This document shows positions 1-63,350 of a stretch of DNA of 64,000 nucleotides, piece by piece. Origin of the DNA: Glaucostegus cemiculus. Taxonomy: Eukaryota. Numbering within the stretch: position 1 is the stretch's first letter; the number at the start of each line of letters is the position of its first letter. Below the pieces are notes generated by a model. The model was not told the DNA's origin, did not search any database, and saw nothing but the letters and a program-made list of their open reading frames with translations. Location: NCBI GenBank assembly GCA_976551045.1, contig CDPCPM010000026.1:21948001-22012000 (forward strand). Reading direction: 5' to 3'. Both the position numbers and the translations under genes were made by a program.

Positions 1-650
1 TTACTCCTGTGCTTTATGACTTCATCTAAATCTCTCAACAAGATTACTTTCTTACTATCATTGGTATCCAATATTCTCTGCATGATGCTTAATGACTTCC
101 ATTTTCCAGTGATAAACTCTGGATTATCACTCTATAAACTTCTTTACTGTGAATATAAGCACGTCTTAACCATGTGAATGATTACCAAAATGTTCAGTTT
201 TTTAGTGTTTGTGGCTCTTGTGAAATGTGGGTGACTTTGAAGTTCCTTCCTGAATACCTTGGCTTAGGTTCTGGTACGTGAATGTTGCAGTGGGAAGCCC
301 TTGAAGAACTATGAGTCTTGTCAGCAACACATGATGATCCATTACAAGTCAACCAAACTAAATCTCTGAGAAAAAGAAAATCAGGATTCAACTTAATGCT
401 GGAGCAAAATTGAAGAGGATCCCTCAACTCACTTTGAAGTCAGTTTAGGCCACATTGCCGAGTTTATAACAAAAGTTTAGTGCTGATGCAGACCCAAGCT
501 TGAACTGTTATCTTTGATGCTATACACACAGGGCAATTTAATTGCCTTGCTCTATTGATGCAGAGCCTTGTTCATTGGTAAATTTAGGGAATAATGTCCA
601 TGATCAGTGAATGAGGCTTTCTCATGTTTATATTTCTGATTTTGTCTTAT

Positions 651-7932: not shown

Positions 7933-8255
7933 GTGTGTGTGAAAGAGAGAGAGATTCAGAGAGCGAAAGAGAGAGTAGTGAGAGTGTGAGAGAGAGAAAG
8001 AATGGAGAGAATATGTGTGTGTGAGAGAGTAGAGAAAAAGAGAAGTGAGAGCGAGAGAGAGAAAGAATGGAGAGAGAGAAAAAGAGTGTGTGAGAGAGAG
8101 TGTAAGTGAGTGAGAGTGAAAAAGAGAGAAAGAATGGAGAGTGAGAGCAAGAGAAAGAGAAAGAATGGAGAGAGAGAAGAAGAATGTATGAGAGAGATGT
8201 GTGAGTGAGAGAGTGAGTGAAAGAAAGAGAGAGAGAGAGAGAGTGAGAGAGAGGA
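7933..8255. repeat. (GA)n/(GT)n purine-rich low-complexity tract with recurring gagagaaagaatggaga
   Basis: Directly visible; the 138-aa S/L/H-rich minus-strand ORF is an artefact of it. Confidence 0.95.
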
Positions 8256-26150: not shown

Positions 26151-27414
26151 GCCTGCCCTGAGTGGTAGGTGCCCAGAATGAGCTGCCAGGGGTAGTGGTG
26201 GAAGCAGATATGATAGAGATAGTTAAGAGGCTGTTGGATAGACACATGAATGAATACACAGGGAATGGAGAGTTAAGGATAATGTACAGGCAGAAGTGAT
26301 CTAATTTAATTAGGCATCGGGTTAGGCACAGACATTGTGGGCCAAAGGGCTTGTCCTTGTGTTGTACTGTGCTATGTTCTAATTAATTTCTTTCAGAAAG
26401 CTTCACTGCTGGCCCCCTGGAACAGGAATGGGAATGTGGATGATGGATCAAATTCTCTCAGCAGTGAATAGGAGTTGTTCTTAAACAACGTTCAATGGAC
26501 CTTTGGGTGTAGTTGAAAGAGATAAGGATCAAAGGTAATTAATGAGAGCAAATGCAGTGTAATTAGAGTAACATATACTGGTCAGATTTATGATGGATAG
26601 TCCATGTGCCTATTTCCACAGGCAACATCCTCCCCCACCCATCCCACTACCATAACATCTGACTAGTATATGCTCCATGTTGAGGCGCTTGTGAGAATCT
26701 GAATTAAAGAATCACTTTTTCAGCAAGTATTCTCATCTCTGAGGAGCTAATCACCCAAATGTGGCTTCACCCTGCAAAAGGTGGGGAATCCACAAATACT
26801 GCAGGGAATATGAAGTTCATTGTAACAATGTGTTCTGTTGTGATCTGAACTTTCCTTCAGTTCCAATGGAGCCATGAATGATCCTGAATATCGGTGTTGT
26901 CAACACTACTGCACCTATGTACTTAACTGTTGCCTTTAAAATGGCTTTGTCTATTGTGTTGCGACATATTTAGTACACGTGTCATGGCATAAATTTAGCT
27001 GGGTGAAACTATTCATTTTTTAAATTATCCTTAATTAAATGAATTGAAAAGTGAACATTTGGTATGTCCTGAGCCAAAAATCTGCAAGTTGTCCAACAGG
27101 GTGCCAGTCTGTCTGGTCCACTGATAATACTCTTTGTTTGGCATTTCAGATTGGCTCGATGTGCTAATTGAGGCAGTGAGACCACATATCCAAAGCATAA
27201 TTAACACCTAGTTAGTGAAAATTATGTTCAGTTCACTTTAGAACAAGCACATCAAATAACCACATTAGATAAAACACAGATCCAAATTTCTTTGTCCATA
27301 ATAAATTCAGTATATTCTCTGGACAAGCTACAAAGAAGCAGAATGGGGACCAGCAGGAGAGAGCACAAGAAACCAGAAAGAGGGATGCAGCAATAGCACA
27401 GAAATAAAAGCAAA

Positions 27415-28750
27415 GTTCTGGAGAGAACTGCTGGCTGGATGCAGAGCATGCATTAGTGGTTTCTTCAGGAAACTGCCAGCAGCAAGCACCAGTGTGCATG
27501 TTAGCACTACTGGTTCACTGCAGTGTGCATGTTTGGGAGTTCTTTGCAAAGCTGCCTCCTGGCTGGAGTGCAGCACTACTACATTCCTGAGAGAATCAGT
27601 GACTCACTGCAGTGCTCATGCCAGCCGGTTCGGTAGAGAACTGCCGTGCATGTGCTGTGCATGTGTTAGTACATTCTGTCCAGAACTACTGACTAGCTGC
27701 AGTGTACTCAGTTAGCAGGTACGACAAAGAATTGGCATCTAACTCCTGTGCTCACATGAATGGATTCAGTGAAGATCAGTGGCTAGCTTCGGTGGACCCA
27801 CAAGTGGGTTCCACAGAGAACTGCCAGCTACTTGAAGTGTGCACTTTAGTGCATTGATAGAGAACTGCCGGCCAGCCGTAATGTGAAAGTAAATGGATTC
27901 TGTGCAGAATCACTGGCCAGCTGCAGCTCCTGCTTTAGAGGGTTCTGGAGAGAGTTGCTGGCAAGCTGCAGTGTGCCCATTAACACATTCTATGGAGAAT
28001 TGCAGCTTGCTGCAGTGCACATGAAAATGGGCTCCATTGAGAACCACAGTTATCTGCAGTGTACATGTTGGTGGGTTCTGTAGAGAGGTGTGGCTGGCTG
28101 GAACACACATATAAGTGGGTGCTGCCCAGACTGTTAGCTACCTGCAGATCACGCCTTAGCACTTTTGTACAGAATTGTGAGCAAGCTGCTAAGCACACAG
28201 AAGCAGGCCCCATACAGAACCATTGACTAGCTGCAGCCCATGCGTTAGGACATTCCATAGAGATTCACCAGCCAGCTCAAGTGCACATTTCTGCTCCTTC
28301 TCTCGAGATCCGCTGGTTAACTGTAGCCAGTGTGTTAGTGTATTCCATGGAGAACCACCACCCAGCTGTACTGCACACTTCTGTGCATTTCATGGAGAAT
28401 CACCTGCTGGCTGTAATAAAAAAGTGTTCCTTAGAGAAATTCTGGCTCAATGCAGTGTGCTCATCAGCAAGTTCTTTTGTGAACTGCTAACTAACTAGCT
28501 GCTGTGCATGCACTGGTGCATTCAGCAGACAACAGCTGGCTAGTCTCAGTGCATATGTTAACACATTCCGATAGGAACTGTCAGTTAACTGCAGTGCACA
28601 GGTTAACACATTCTGGAGAGAACCACCAGCTAAATGTAGTGCCTGTGTTTATGGGTTCCATAGAGAACAATTGGCTAGCAACAGTGTGCATGTTGTTGCA
28701 TGTCACAGAGAACTGCAGGTGGGCTGCAGTGTGCATGTCAGCAAGTATCC
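27415..28750. repeat. Ancient degenerate 45-bp tandem array, ~30 units
   Basis: Anchor (g/c)agaa-like motif recurs at 27591, 27636, 27681, 27816, 27860, 27905, 27950, 27995, 28215, 28260, 28305, 28350, 28395, 28618, 28663, 28708; approximate consensus gagaactgctggctagctgcagtgtgcatgttagcacattccata. Confidence 0.9.
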
Positions 28751-28807
28751 CGGAGGTCACCATCTCGACGCAGTATATCTGTTAGGAATTCCAGACTTCC
28801 AGGGATT

Positions 28808-29462
28808 AACACAGTGGCACCACTGGTAGAGCCGATGCCTCACAGCTTCAGTGACACAGGTTAAATCCTGACCTCAGGTGCTGTCTGTGTGGAGTTTGTG
28901 CATTCTCCCTGTGACCATATGCATTTCACCCAGGTGCTCTTCTGGTTTCTTCCCACATTCCAAACCCGTGTGAGTTAGTGGGTTAATTGGCCACTATAAA
29001 TATCCCCCCATATGTAGGTGATTGGTAGATTCTGGACGAGAATTGATAGAAATGTGGGAAGAATAAAAAAGGGACTAGCATAGGATTACTGTAACTGGAT
29101 GCTTGATTTTTCTATGGTTGATAGGATATCTTTATTAGTCACATGTACATCGAAACACACAGTGAAATGCATCCTTTGTGTAGAGTGTTCTGGGGGCAGC
29201 CCACACATGTTGCCATACTTCCGGCGCCAACATAGCATGCCCATAACTTCTTAACCTGTACGTCTTTGGAATGTGGGAGGAAACTGGAGTACCCGGAGGA
29301 AACCCATGCAGACACAGGGAGAATGTACAGACTCCTTACAGACAGTGGCTGGATTTGAACCTGGGTCACTGGCACTGTAATAGCATTACACTAATCGCTA
29401 CACTACGTGATGTGGCCCTGGTGGGCAGAAAGGCATTTATCCATGCTATTTACCTCTATGAT
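28808..29462 (+). mobile_element. HE1/V-SINE-like SINE whose tail is split by an antisense SINE
   Basis: Head acagtggcaccactggtagagccgatgcctcacagc, core gctgtctgtgtggagtttg...ttctccctgtgacc; tail resumes after 29410 as ggtgggcagaaaggcatttatccatgct...ctctatgatt. Confidence 0.8.
29120..29410 (-). mobile_element. V-SINE with tRNA head and Rex1/Babar-like tail, near full length
   Basis: Reversed head ggatttgaacctgggtcactggcactgtaatagcattacactaatcgctacactac; V core; tail tatctttattagtcacatgtacatcgaaacacac. Confidence 0.85.
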
Positions 29463-34560: not shown

Positions 34561-36729
34561 AAGTATATCATCATCACACAACATTGTGGTTCCTCCAAGC
34601 TTCAAATTCTTTCAACCTAACTTTCGCCTTGTCCACAGAACTGACTCTCCTCCACGTGACATGCCCTGGCACATAACCCATCTGGTCTTCCATGATGTTT
34701 GCAATCTGTTGGACACAACTGTCTAATGGGACATAACTGTCTAATGGTTCACCTCTGGTGGGGTGGGGGGGGGGCTGCCCTAGCATGGTTATACTTCCAC
34801 CTCTCTCTAGTAATGGCTCAGCACACTCTATAGATACCTTTGGTTTTTCACAGTGTTTTCCTTGAAATCCAGTTTTTCCTTTGTTTTGATAATGCAGGCC
34901 CACAACACAACTCCAACCCTTTTCTCTGCTAATGGATCCCAAAGAACTGCATGGACATCAGTGACAAGGTATAAGGTTAAGGATCCTTCCCTTGATCTGA
35001 GCATGACTAAAAATATCTGAACCATTGTCTCCAAGCCTGAGTTGCATTCCCATTTATACTGATACAATTTCATTTTTCCATTTTACTGCCATTCCTTATT
35101 TCTCTGAGCTAAATAGCAAACCCCTATGCCATCCAAAAGGAGAATTGTCAACCTCATGCTTATCATATTAACCTTTACTTAATGTTTAACTTTGTCAATG
35201 TCCTGCACTGGGCCACCTAGCCCCATCCTCACATAATCTCCAACTGATGTGAAACTTTGGCACTCACACCCTGTCTGTAATAAAGTCTCCTGTGTCATTA
35301 CAGACCATTGGACTGAATTCAAAATTCTTTTCCTTCTCAATGGATAATTTTCCAGGCTCTTCCTGCCACTCCTGTTCAAGCTCTTGCAAACCTGTATGAA
35401 CCTGTGCCTTTATCTCATTTATGCCTCATTTTCTCACAGCTCTTCTTTTACCTGCAGTTCAATCAGCTGTCTCAATCTTATTCTCTGGAATGCTTTCTCC
35501 AAACGTGTACTGTCTGTTCTCTTCCCCCCACCCCACCCCCCATCTCTTGTCTTTAAAAGCAAGCTCCCTTTCTGAAATTTACCAATTTCTTTTATTTTTT
35601 CTGTTCCTATCATCTGTCCATAATCACCTGCATAAATTGCTTTAGAACTATTTATTGACTCAGTAACGCTACATAAATGTAAATTGTTATACAAAGGAAA
35701 CAATGGAATGAGCTACAAACATTAGTATGCCACTGACATCACTGTAACAGCAGCAACAAAACCTAATGGAAGAACCCAACAAAGTAGGAAAATGCTTCAA
35801 ACATTATTGCATAAATATGCATAATACTTGAAATTGATGTATAAGTGGCTGAGTACAAATCATGCATTTTTAAAATGCAGTATTTCTAAGACATTCCAGT
35901 TCATTGATTTCAACATTTCATTTTAAATACAAAAATACCTAATTTATACCACAGCTGCCAATGGCAAATAAACATAAATATTCCACATCATATATTAAAC
36001 TACAAAGTTAAAAATTCTGTCAAAGGCATCTGGTAAACCAAAATACTAGGTAATTTCAATATTTCTAGCTGTAAGCTTTCATGTTATTTATGCATAATAA
36101 TTGCTTCAGCTTTTTGAAAAATTCCTGTTAGAAATTGCTAGCATTTTACACATATTGGAATTTTCATCTTTCTGTATTAAGCTCAATCTTCAACATTTTT
36201 ATATACAGTCTGCAGCTGCAATTAATCTTCCCCAGTGGAAAGATTCACTGTCTTCAGGATTTATGACTAGGTGCTGGACACTGCAACAATATTGTGGAGC
36301 TGGGTCTCTGATAGAAGTGTGCTGCTAATTGGATCTCGGCAGCTAATCAGTACTCTGTGAAAAAAAATCATCCCACTGGTTCTGTCTGATAAAATGGATG
36401 GCTCTGCTTCCATACCGAATCAGAGAATTGAATCCCGAAATCAAATCCAGCTCCCGATTAATATCATAAAGGTTACTAATGCTCCTGTCACAAACCCAAT
36501 CTAGGTGCTATGTGTTGAGTTGATCTTGTATTCAAGCATGATTGCTCAACTGAAAAAAGGTGATAGCCTGGTTTAAGAGTGCCAGATCTGGTTGAGAGTA
36601 TACTATAAATGCAGCCAAGTCAGCTGCTTTCATTGTAGGCCATGAGCTGGATCACAATTGTAAAGGAAAGTTAATTCAGCCTGCTTAATGCACAGCATAT
36701 CAAATAATTTCTTTGTTTCCCCTCACACA

Positions 36730-37760
36730 GCTTCCGTAGAGTCAAATGTTGTAGAGGCACACTAGTTTTCCAGAACGAATGGACTAGACGGACCAATGAG
36801 CTTTCCCCTTTGAGTTCCCGCGAGTATCCGTGCTTTTCTTTTCTTCCTTCAGGAATTTACAAACATTCACAACAAATCAATAAGGCTATTGATTATTCAT
36901 TGTACAGTGCGTTGTTGGTGCGAAGCTGGCACAGAAAGCAAATGCAGCTTCTGCAAGCCAGCCGCATCCCATCTGGTGGCTGGTGGCACAGAGAAAGGAG
37001 AAAAAAGGCAGGGAGAAAGAACGTGAGAGAAAGCCAGATGAGTGAGAGAGGTGGCAGGGCATCTCCGCAGGCATGGGAAGTACGCATTTATGCTACGTAA
37101 GGGTATGGCAACGTGTAAAAAGAACTGACTCACAGGGAACAGGAGATAGCTACTACGTAACAGAGGTTTCCTTGGCTCTGTGACAAGAAGAGCGGTAAGG
37201 TAATACATGATTGCTGCTCTAATGCTGTGACTATGCAAACGTCTGTGATGCATCCACTTATTTTGCAGTCGTGTAGCGACTGGAACGTGAAGGAGGGGGG
37301 AAAACATTGTGTCGCCTTCTTGTAAGTAAATGTAACTGCATGCAGAAAGGATCGTGAGCTTGAAACCTGCTAAGAGAATTTTTGAAAAGGAAGGGGAGCA
37401 GGAAGCGTTATGCATTAAGGAGCTGTGGCATGCCAAATGTTTTATGAAAATAAAATCGGAAGAGGGAGCGAGAAAAGAGAAGAGAAAGCACAGCTTGGCC
37501 CAGTGCCAACACCAGTGAAATGAATTATAGTGTAGAATAATGGTACACCATTGATCCAGCCACTTGTTTGAGAGCGGTGATTGTCCCCGAGCCCTGACAG
37601 GAATTTCTGTGCGTGCGTACTCTGGGGCTGCATGAGAAAACCAATAAGTCACAACTGCTGACGACACTGTGAGGGAGGAGTGGGTTGCCAAGTGAGCATG
37701 CCCATGTTCAAGTGGTATTCTACTGTATAAATACAAGCGTTCAGTCTTCTCAATGGGAAC
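36730..37760. promoter_or_regulatory. Repeat-free, CpG-retaining candidate conserved element (alternative-exon cluster and/or promoter)
   Basis: Many intact CpGs versus depleted flanks; several minus-strand polypyrimidine-YAG sites; TGCATG motifs; X-box-like ggtatggcaac at 37102; CCAAT at 37641; TATAAATA at 37726. Confidence 0.45.
37134..37177 (-). other. Candidate 44-nt exon
   Basis: Minus strand ccttaccgctcttcttgtcacag|AGCCAAGGAAACCTCTGTTACGTAGTAGCTATCTCCTGTTCCCT|gtgagt, with consensus acceptor and donor; host gene not recognised. Confidence 0.35.
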
Positions 37761-40864: not shown

Positions 40865-41795
40865 ATCAGAATCAGAATCAGGTTTATTATTACTGACTTG
40901 TATGATGTGAAATTTGTTGTTTTGTGGCAGCAGTACAGTGGAGGCATAAAACTGTTCAGAAATCTGACAGTGGAGTGGAAAAAGCTGTTCCTGAAATGTT
41001 AAGTGTGGGTCTTCAGGCTCCTGTACCTCCTTCCAGATGGTAGTAATGTGAAGAGGGCAGTCCCAGATGGTGAGGGTCCTCAATGATGGATGCTGCCTTC
41101 TTGAGGCACTGCCTCTTGAAGATGTCCTCGATGAAACAGAGGGTTGTGCCTGTGATGGAGCTGGCTGACTCTATAATCCCCTGCAGCCTCTTGCAATCCT
41201 GTGCATTGGAGTCTCCATACCAGGCTGTAATGCAACCAGTCAGAATGCTCTCCACCATACATCTATAGAAATTTGCAAGAGTCTTAGGTGATATACCAAA
41301 TTTCCTCAAACTCCTAATGAAGTAGAGCCACTAGCATGCCTTCTTCGTGGTTGCATCAATGTGTTGAGCACAGGATAGATACTCAGAGAAATTGACACCC
41401 AGGAACTTGAAGCTGCTCACCCTTTCCACTGCTGACCCCTCAATGAGGACTGGTGTGTGCTCTCCCGACTTCCCATTCCTGAAGTCCACAGGAAAGGTCT
41501 TGCTGATGTTGAGTGTGAGGTTGTTGTTGTGATACCTCTCAAACAGCAGATCTATCTCATGTCTGTACGCCTCCTCATCACCATCTCAGATTCTGCCAAC
41601 AATAGTGGTGTCATTAGCAAATTTATAGATGGCATTTGAGCTGTGCCTAGCCACACAGTCATGAGTGTAGAGAGAGTAGAGCAGTGGGCTTAGCATGCAT
41701 CCTTGAGGTGCACTTGTGTTGATTGTCAGTGAGGGGGAGATGTTATTACCAATCTACGCTGACTGTGGCCTCCTGAAAAGGAAGTTGAGGATCCT
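40865..41795 (-). mobile_element. Rex1/Babar LINE, 5'-truncated (RT C-terminus, DUF1891-like region, (GATTCT)n tail)
   Basis: ORF 41013-41309 RKFGISPKTLANFYRCMVESILTGCITAWYG...CLKKAASIIEDPHH; RT catalytic motif decayed to IYKFANDTTIVGRI at ~41590-41632; tail atcagaatcagaatcaggtttatt. Confidence 0.9.
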
Positions 41796-44014: not shown

Positions 44015-44570
44015 ACTGAACCTCACTTGGAGTATTGTGTATCGTTCTGGTCACCACACTACAGAAAGTATGTGGTAGCATTAGAAAGAGATTCACAAAC
44101 ATGTGTCCTGGAATGGAGAGCTTTACTTTTAAGGAGTAATTTGACATGCTGGGTTTATACTCACTGGAACATTGGAAGCTGACGGATGACCTTACTGAAG
44201 TTTATAAAATAATGAGGGGTAAAATAGGGTAGATAGTCAGAGTCTTTTTCCCAGTGTAGGGGAGTCTAAAACTAGAGGACAGAGGTTTAAGGTGAGAAGG
44301 GAGAAATTTAAAGGAGAGCTGAGGTGTATGTTTTTCATCCAGAAGGTCATGGTTAAATGGAATGAGCTGCCAAGGGAAGTGGTAGAGGCAGATAAAATTA
44401 CAGCACTTAACAGGCATTTGGGCAGGTACTTGAATAGGAAAGGATTAGAGAGATAAGGACTACATGTGGCAAATGGGATTAGTATTAATAGGCATCACAG
44501 TTGGCATGGGCAAGTTGAGCCGAAGAGCTCGTTTCTGTGCTGTACAATTCTATGACTTTATGAGTCATAA
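44015..44570 (+). mobile_element. CR1 ORF2 C-terminus and 3' UTR
   Basis: cctcacttggagtattgtgtatcgttctggtcaccacactacagaaag translates PHLEYCVSFWSPHYRK; EVYKIMRG; tail gtttctgtgctgtacaattctatgactttatga. Confidence 0.9.
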
Positions 44571-62701: not shown

Positions 62702-63350
62702 CTATTCCCAGGCACTGGGTCTATGCACACACCCGAACGAATTGGCGAATCCCGGTTCCGGTCACACGTAACAACATTCCCAGTCCAAGGGTCCAGCTAC
62801 ACACCGAACGGCATTCACAGTCCATGTGTCCAGCCACACACCAAACAGCATTCCCAGTCCACGAGTCCAACCATACACCAAACAGCATTCCCAGTCCATG
62901 GGTCCAGCCACACGCCAAACAGCATTCCCAGTCCATGGGTCCAGCCACACACCAAACAGCATTCCCAGTCCACGAGTCCAACCATACACCAAACAGCATT
63001 CCCAGTCCATGGGTCCAGCCACACACCAAACAGCATTCCCAGTCCATGGGTCCAGCCACACACCAAACAGCATTCCCAGTCCATGGGTCCAGCCACACAC
63101 CAAACAGCATTCCCAGTCCATGGGTCCAGCCACACACCAAACAGCATTCCCAGTCCATGGGTTGAGTCACACACTTAATGGCACTCCCAGTCCACAGGTC
63201 CAGCCAACACACCAAACAGCACTCCCATTCTACGGGTCCAGCCACACACCTAACGTCATTCCCAATCCCTGGGCTCCATTTACAAACCCAAACGCATACC
63301 CACGAATGGCTCCAGCTATACACCTGATCACACTCCCAGTCCCAGGCCAT
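62702..63350. repeat. 37-bp minisatellite (cattcccagtccatgggtccagccacacaccaaacag), roughly 17 units including degenerate edges
   Basis: Unit starts e.g. 63071 and 63108; near-identical core ~62850-63160; the overlapping ORFs on both strands are artefacts of it. Confidence 0.95.

Follow-up and report, generated by a model that had tools for sequence, protein, structure and literature searches.

The DNA analysed here, called the window below, is a stretch of 64,000 nucleotides from Glaucostegus cemiculus, and the feature of interest in it is a decayed tandem array of about 1.4 kb, in which 45-base units follow each other head-to-tail (Table 1). No gene was recognised in the window by Pfam searches of long frames and short pieces: 150 of the 177 stop-free frames of at least 68 residues gave two matches, both below the curated cut-off, and 60 short pieces (59 of the 169 exon candidates and the stretch upstream of the array) gave none, nor did PDB sequence searches with two candidate exons. 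The match to Herpes_UL55 (27913-28137, minus strand, E 2e-4) was taken as chance, and the one to ALKBH8_N (41016-41330, minus strand) we take to be a LINE fragment; decayed LINE-like coding fragments are seen at 41016-41500 and 44197-44557, presumably RTE-like and CR1-like. A terminal exon with a poly(A) site just before the array was considered and rejected, as no homolog of it was found and there is a 1-base insertion nearby, and as the AATAAA at 27403 is broken in two relatives (organisms B and C below). Elsewhere in the window we observed a much younger 37-base tandem array (62704-63342; 14-17 copies, 87% core matches, frayed edges), which is a natural comparator, a decayed AG microsatellite of ~310 bases (7944-8253), and a repeat-free, less CpG-depleted segment (36700-37760; observed/expected 0.33-0.49) carrying a 288-codon minus-strand open frame without Pfam match. 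The best-scoring exon-like segment (36853-37022) lies within the last of these, and this whole stretch could represent a conserved element or else an exon without coding function.

Table 1. Features of the array and of its immediate surroundings (positions within the window; columns are those of the 45-base unit)
Feature	Position	Strand	Remarks
Low-divergence block, possibly a constrained non-coding element	27065..27312	.	110 bases upstream of array
Incomplete unit leading into array (its final 8 columns), at left edge	27415..27422	.	profile alignment
Decayed tandem array	27423..28795	.	31 head-to-tail 45-base units
Unit starts	27423, 27468, 27506, 27547, 27591 ... 28663, 28708, 28753		
Former CpG pairs	columns 7-8, 10-11, 25-26, 27-28, 29-30, 35-36, 42-43		
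Stretch near family profile	27804..27885	.	85th-97th percentile; draws four unit-length matches on other contigs
Second stretch drawing matches on other contigs	28581..28743	.	73rd-91st percentile
Dispersed SINE-like repeat directly after last unit	28809..29077	+	5 self-BLAST matches in window
Second SINE-like repeat, apparently inserted in tail of first	29120..29380	-	opposite orientation; pair spans 28801-29440

The block upstream of the array differs from organism B by at least three listed, and at most six, substitutions in 248 bases, compared with 14 expected (post-hoc p 0.0003-0.01). Its divergence from organism C is low as well, and it contains several TAAT and TTGGC motifs, which we take to be homeodomain and NFI sites; it is possibly an enhancer. 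A weak, purine-rich 35-base repeat of 2.5 copies (27321-27404; TRF with relaxed weights, score 79) was also noticed just upstream of the array. On the other side the first SINE-like repeat, presumably akin to the HE1 V-SINE of sharks and rays, adjoins the last unit and thus hides the original right flank of the array. HE1 V-SINEs are assigned to sharks and rays in the available text of one study (PMC4824008).

The tandem array is real. Units were delimited by iterated wrap-around profile alignment, and the autocorrelation at lag 45 is 0.398, compared with a best value of 0.299 at lags 20-119 in 100 Markov-resampled copies. An earlier note on this DNA had proposed about 30 length-conserved 45-bp units at mostly exact spacing, which agrees with the 31 units found and with 16 of the 30 spacings being exactly 45 bases; the others are 44 (seven), 46 (two) and 38, 39, 41, 43 and 49 (one each). 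The three units that it quoted lie where they had been placed (27860, 28305 and 28618), and of the span that it gave, 27415..28750, the start stands, given the 8-base lead-in, and the end has to be moved, the last unit reaching ~45 bases further. Head-to-tail units of 45 bases in this number fall within the unit size of minisatellites or VNTRs (~10-100 bases). With standard weights TRF detected only 28547-28642 (two units), and with relaxed weights, in line with the low-stringency search proposed earlier, it recovered 27518-28735 (27.3 copies); most of such an array escapes TRF at standard settings. Pairwise identity of the units averages 0.546 (range 0.33-0.75) and stays at 0.53-0.57 at each lag from 1 to 15, distance along the array being without effect. 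A profile scan of the rest of the 64-kb window disclosed no further units (best E 0.63).

The differences between units carry a clear signature. Within the unit, TG and CA alternate at Fisher p<0.01 in 7 of the 44 adjacent column pairs (p 6e-5 to 3e-3), compared with a mean of 0.017 such pairs and a maximum of 1 in 1000 column shuffles, and the excess of TG and CA at common columns which a unit alignment had been expected to reveal is thus present. Over these seven pairs (n=210) there are 76 TG, 69 CA, 12 TA and 7 CG; the strand symmetry of TG and CA (p=0.62) fits methylation of both strands. The loss of CpG amounts to 97%, or at least 1.7 per site, compared with a transition fraction of 0.13 at other sites, and the GC content of the unit with CpGs restored is ~64%, compared with 49% now. 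Since CpG is depleted throughout the window (observed/expected mostly 0.1-0.3), ordinary global methylation is enough to account for this. About half of the differences between units is due to CpG decay, the rest being ordinary substitution (23% at other columns). The ancestral sequence proposed in the earlier note is supported in being CpG-rich and fails at two places: columns 23-24 (TG in 22, CA in 1 and CG in none of 31 units) have no CpG signature, and columns 37-38 are no decayed CpG either.

Of 28 units, 10 have CA at columns 37-38, 9 have GG and none has TG, and no other column tracks the two states, which form 18 runs compared with 14.4 expected and are thus interspersed without clustering. 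These columns are an old dimorphism of two variants, corresponding to the two interspersed subtypes that had been recognised before; variant units are a known concept for minisatellites, and their interspersed occurrence is what is found here. At the 29 other columns, 201 of 882 positions depart from the majority (22.8%; corrected, 0.27 substitutions per site). The units are alike in their non-CpG divergence (chi2 24.4, df 30) and pairs of units have no more derived states in common than column shuffles do (P 0.57 for variance), so that they behave as a star. Column rates looked heterogeneous at first (p=0.006), which is due to TpA context: after modelling of base and TpA context no heterogeneity is left (chi2 27.8, df 26, p=0.37), TpA columns having changed at 60 of 183 positions (33%) and other A/T columns at 39 of 271 (14%). 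Changes at the TpA columns 14-15, 32-33 and 44-45 lead mostly to CA and TG, as a context effect or as old variant sites. Part of the 23% divergence may consist of old variant units and not of decay, in which case age is overstated. The unit alignment contains 18 indel events, 17 of them not multiples of three.

Public sequence from relatives allows the same locus to be followed between species. Ten public runs from three organisms contain part of the stretch, no RNA run being among those listed, and four of them were compared with 26380-28800 at 80%. Run X1 gave four pieces with zero differences, and organisms B and C are each represented by a single contig across the stretch, with 140 and 139 substitutions and 42 gap letters, and without any unit-sized gap or joint. 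Substitutions are more frequent in the array (~94/1386, about 6.8%) than in the upstream flank (~46/1029, about 4.5%; p=0.017), with a split between the two that is approximate, being reconstructed from pieces and from 40 of 159 substitution rows and 12 of 16 indel rows; the array pieces of run X2 alone show 91 differences in 1376 bases. Each unit is ~93% like its own ortholog, compared with 55% like its neighbours. An array that evolves faster than its flank is neither conserved nor still homogenising, and copy number is fixed across the three species. The ongoing change of copy number and the homogenisation of an active minisatellite are thus missing, B and C having no unit-sized gap and identity being flat, and satellite DNA under concerted evolution is not what we see in a 1.4-kb array of units that are not homogenised. 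The column signature, its strand symmetry, the star-like divergence and the lack of whole-unit gain or loss between species support the central proposal of the earlier note, namely that a CpG-rich ancestor was diversified by methyl-CpG deamination without homogenisation. With the per-lineage distance to B and C (0.03) as the yardstick, the array (0.27) is ~8-9 times as old. An absolute date was rejected: the rate given for the epaulette shark in the available text of PMC10587355, 7x10^-10 per generation, leads to ~4x10^8 generations, which is too large if taken literally, and age is used here only in the relative sense.

Two other explanations, developed from the alternatives in the earlier note, have to be weighed against this neutral picture, and the tests support neither. 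One is that the array has a function, as a series of protein-binding sites or as a structured RNA, and that selection keeps its 45-base spacing, perhaps in concert with the upstream block of low divergence. It can point to that block, to columns 2-4 and 39, which are the least variable (0-10%), and to the indels, which stand to substitutions at ~1:19 in the array, anciently as well as between species, and at ~1:9 in the flank, about half as many in the array, with about 5 events each; this ratio is too little for arguing selection on length. The rate of 6.8%, where a conserved element or structured RNA should stay below the 4.5% of its flank, the disappearance of column differences under the context model, and the 3-7 bases that units gain or lose between species by small internal indels (27477, 27646/27649, 28418, 28483) all argue against it. 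Nor is a conserved fold apparent: Rfam has 0 matches in the window, folding of the restored units does not exceed that of shuffled sequences (z -0.2 to +1.4), and only 1 of 6 present units falls below z -2. We consider this explanation very unlikely, and the puzzle that 'length conservation' seemed to pose dissolves, since with 18 visible indels and unit lengths still changing between species selection is unneeded. The other explanation, in which the units are the decayed remains of a repeat exon of 15 codons, from an extinct multigene family or from the ORF of a mobile element, we likewise hold to be very unlikely. Four of the six frames of the CpG-restored unit are indeed stop-free, but 64% GC alone gives four open frames of six, and stops in the open frames (10, 4, 12 and 11) are close to those in neutral simulation (8.9, 6.9, 10.0 and 9.3), without avoidance. 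Retained residues agree with the simulation too, the best case being one plus frame with 198 compared with 183 simulated (P=0.05, uncorrected for the four frames). In another plus frame a single codon takes in the CA/GG dimorphism; against a reading frame, 17 of 18 indels are frame-shifting where indels in threes would be looked for. A profile of one frame retrieved a single match from 1.84 billion proteins, the frog hemicentin-like P0001, rejected as an artefact, its score being the sum of eight weak matches (4.8 bits each) to identical Ig repeats, and another plus frame had none among 9 candidates, with only sub-0.9 Atlas matches; a homologous repeat protein was thus found neither for these two plus frames in large protein libraries nor for the minus-strand frames, which were searched in Pfam only. 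The array most likely does nothing today.

A feature that is absent from the earlier note concerns other places in the genome: judged from sequence matches, the array appears to belong to a dispersed family of roughly tens of arrays. Other contigs (0.7-5.2 kb) match array pieces of 37-45 bases, at least six in run X5, at least five in X8 and at least two in X2; one record present in all three runs has two parts which, with three intervening letters, make up one in-register unit, and at least seven other contigs of a relative (run X5) have unit-length matches, all as counted among 28 listed pieces, besides which there were 15 more. The binomial chance expectation is below 0.04 for five of six X5 matches and below 0.07 for four of five X8 matches, with fixed lengths and no length optimisation, which understates chance, and one match, of 38 bases with 7 differences, is no more than chance would give (E 2.5-3). 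In closeness to the family profile, all seven target windows tested rank above the 73rd percentile, as expected if the sisters share the same ancestor, and most matches cross a unit junction. Organisms B and C apparently have the same sister contigs (lengths 2640/2637, 1057/1066 and 1250/1259), so that the sisters would be old too. Of the 30-base loose ends displayed for the sister contigs, three look unit-like by eye and several do not. Among the listed matches there are one flank piece and one edge piece, the sister contigs being mostly without a match to the upstream flank. Simulated 30-unit sister arrays yield such a match in 9-25% of cases, from which the seven matches give, as a rough floor, a family of ~30-80 arrays. 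Dispersed copies, such as a transposon-internal repeat should have, are seen, indirectly, in at least seven other X5 contigs, most of them beyond chance. A motif scan for an intact relative found 0 in viral contigs and 0 in metagenomes; the sole match to a looser motif, L001, is a single unit-like stretch without neighbours in gene-dense, prokaryote-like DNA and was rejected as chance.

We think it probable that the array is a fossil minisatellite, made of CpG-decayed and independently drifting units, with sisters elsewhere and likely spread to tens of places by an old mobile element. A nearly uniform, GC-rich array (~64% GC as restored) with two interspersed variant units would have existed first, as star-like divergence and column signature suggest, and a transposon that bore an internal or subterminal repeat would likely have delivered it here, as its dispersal suggests; the transposon carrier is the weakest step of the proposal. 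Germline methylation of both strands would then have turned 97% of CpGs into TG, CA or other pairs, leaving the signature that we observe. By itself this decay would bring the units down to ~84% identity and leave CpG-free runs of at most 13 bases, much less than the 200-400 identical bases that the available part of PMC8918686 cites for recombination in eukaryotes, so that slippage, unequal exchange and with them homogenisation would stop and the array would freeze at its copy number. Each unit would thereafter have drifted neutrally to the observed distance of ~0.27 substitutions per non-CpG site. Precedents, as far as the accessible text of each source goes, are minisatellites derived from transposable elements (PMC3389668), the GC-rich VNTR of 30-50 bp with variant units inside SVA (PMC4432496) and CpG decay as a recombination barrier (PMC8918686). 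The same fossil and the same CpG decay can also be had without a transposon, if a free minisatellite or small satellite family was dispersed by segmental or subtelomeric duplication or by reinsertion of circles and then frozen, which we regard as rather unlikely. This is favoured by the small estimated family, by the scarcity of flank matches among those listed, and by the surroundings of the array, where neither element ORFs (Pfam on stop-free frames) nor terminal inverted repeats or target-site duplications (best E 0.32) were found, with the right flank overwritten by the SINEs and short ends of a kind that age would erase. Segmental duplication, however, should also copy the flanks, and at 80% hardly any matches to the 1-kb upstream flank were seen (a weak point after 0.27 substitutions per site); the window also has no sign of a chromosome end. 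A more far-reaching version of the carrier proposal, in which the array would be the last readable trace of a hitherto undescribed VNTR-bearing mobile element that was active hundreds of Myr ago, at about the origin of sharks and rays or before it, and survives as tens of orthologous CpG-decayed arrays missed by repeat masks, with the constrained upstream block as an exapted regulatory arm, seems to us unlikely.

The process described here is an ordinary, textbook one; the ancient repeat family on which it acts may be unannotated. No description of the 45-base repeat was found in the papers searched; subscription journals and the repeat databases Repbase and Dfam lay outside that scope, and the repeat may already be catalogued there. 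Tandem repeats in an advanced state of decay are known as a nuisance class, according to the available text of PMC11580682. The 31 units are independent replicates of one start sequence, and in a lineage of slow evolution they offer a clean natural experiment on how sequence context shapes mutation over long times. Should the family prove to be unannotated, a profile built from it would bring to light tens of old orthologous loci that could serve as dating markers, and an extinct transposon might be named in this way.

Several known systems invite comparison, in each case with the cited source taken as far as its accessible text goes. The model in which repeat methylation acts as a barrier to recombination (Kricker et al., 1992, cited in PMC8918686) shares with our array the CpG deficit, the matching excess of TpG and CpA and a divergence that would block further exchange, and differs in that there is no sign here of homology-targeted methylation. 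The UCON, Eulor and MER classes (PMC5753468), compared by description only, are likewise old, low-copy, fragmentary, orthologous between species and hard to classify, whereas they were found by conservation and the array is unconstrained. The 30-50 bp VNTR of SVA and LAVA (PMC4432496) and minisatellites derived from transposable elements (PMC3389668) resemble it in unit size, GC-richness, variant units and dispersal over many loci, a likeness of description that implies no sequence kinship; our array is far older and fully decayed, and its carrier is putative. The GC-rich minisatellites (VNTRs) have in common with it head-to-tail units of minisatellite size, a GC- and CpG-rich ancestry and two mixed variant units. 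Unlike them, the array shows neither copy-number change in three species nor local homogenisation, and its units are 55% alike; it is, in this comparison, a dead VNTR.
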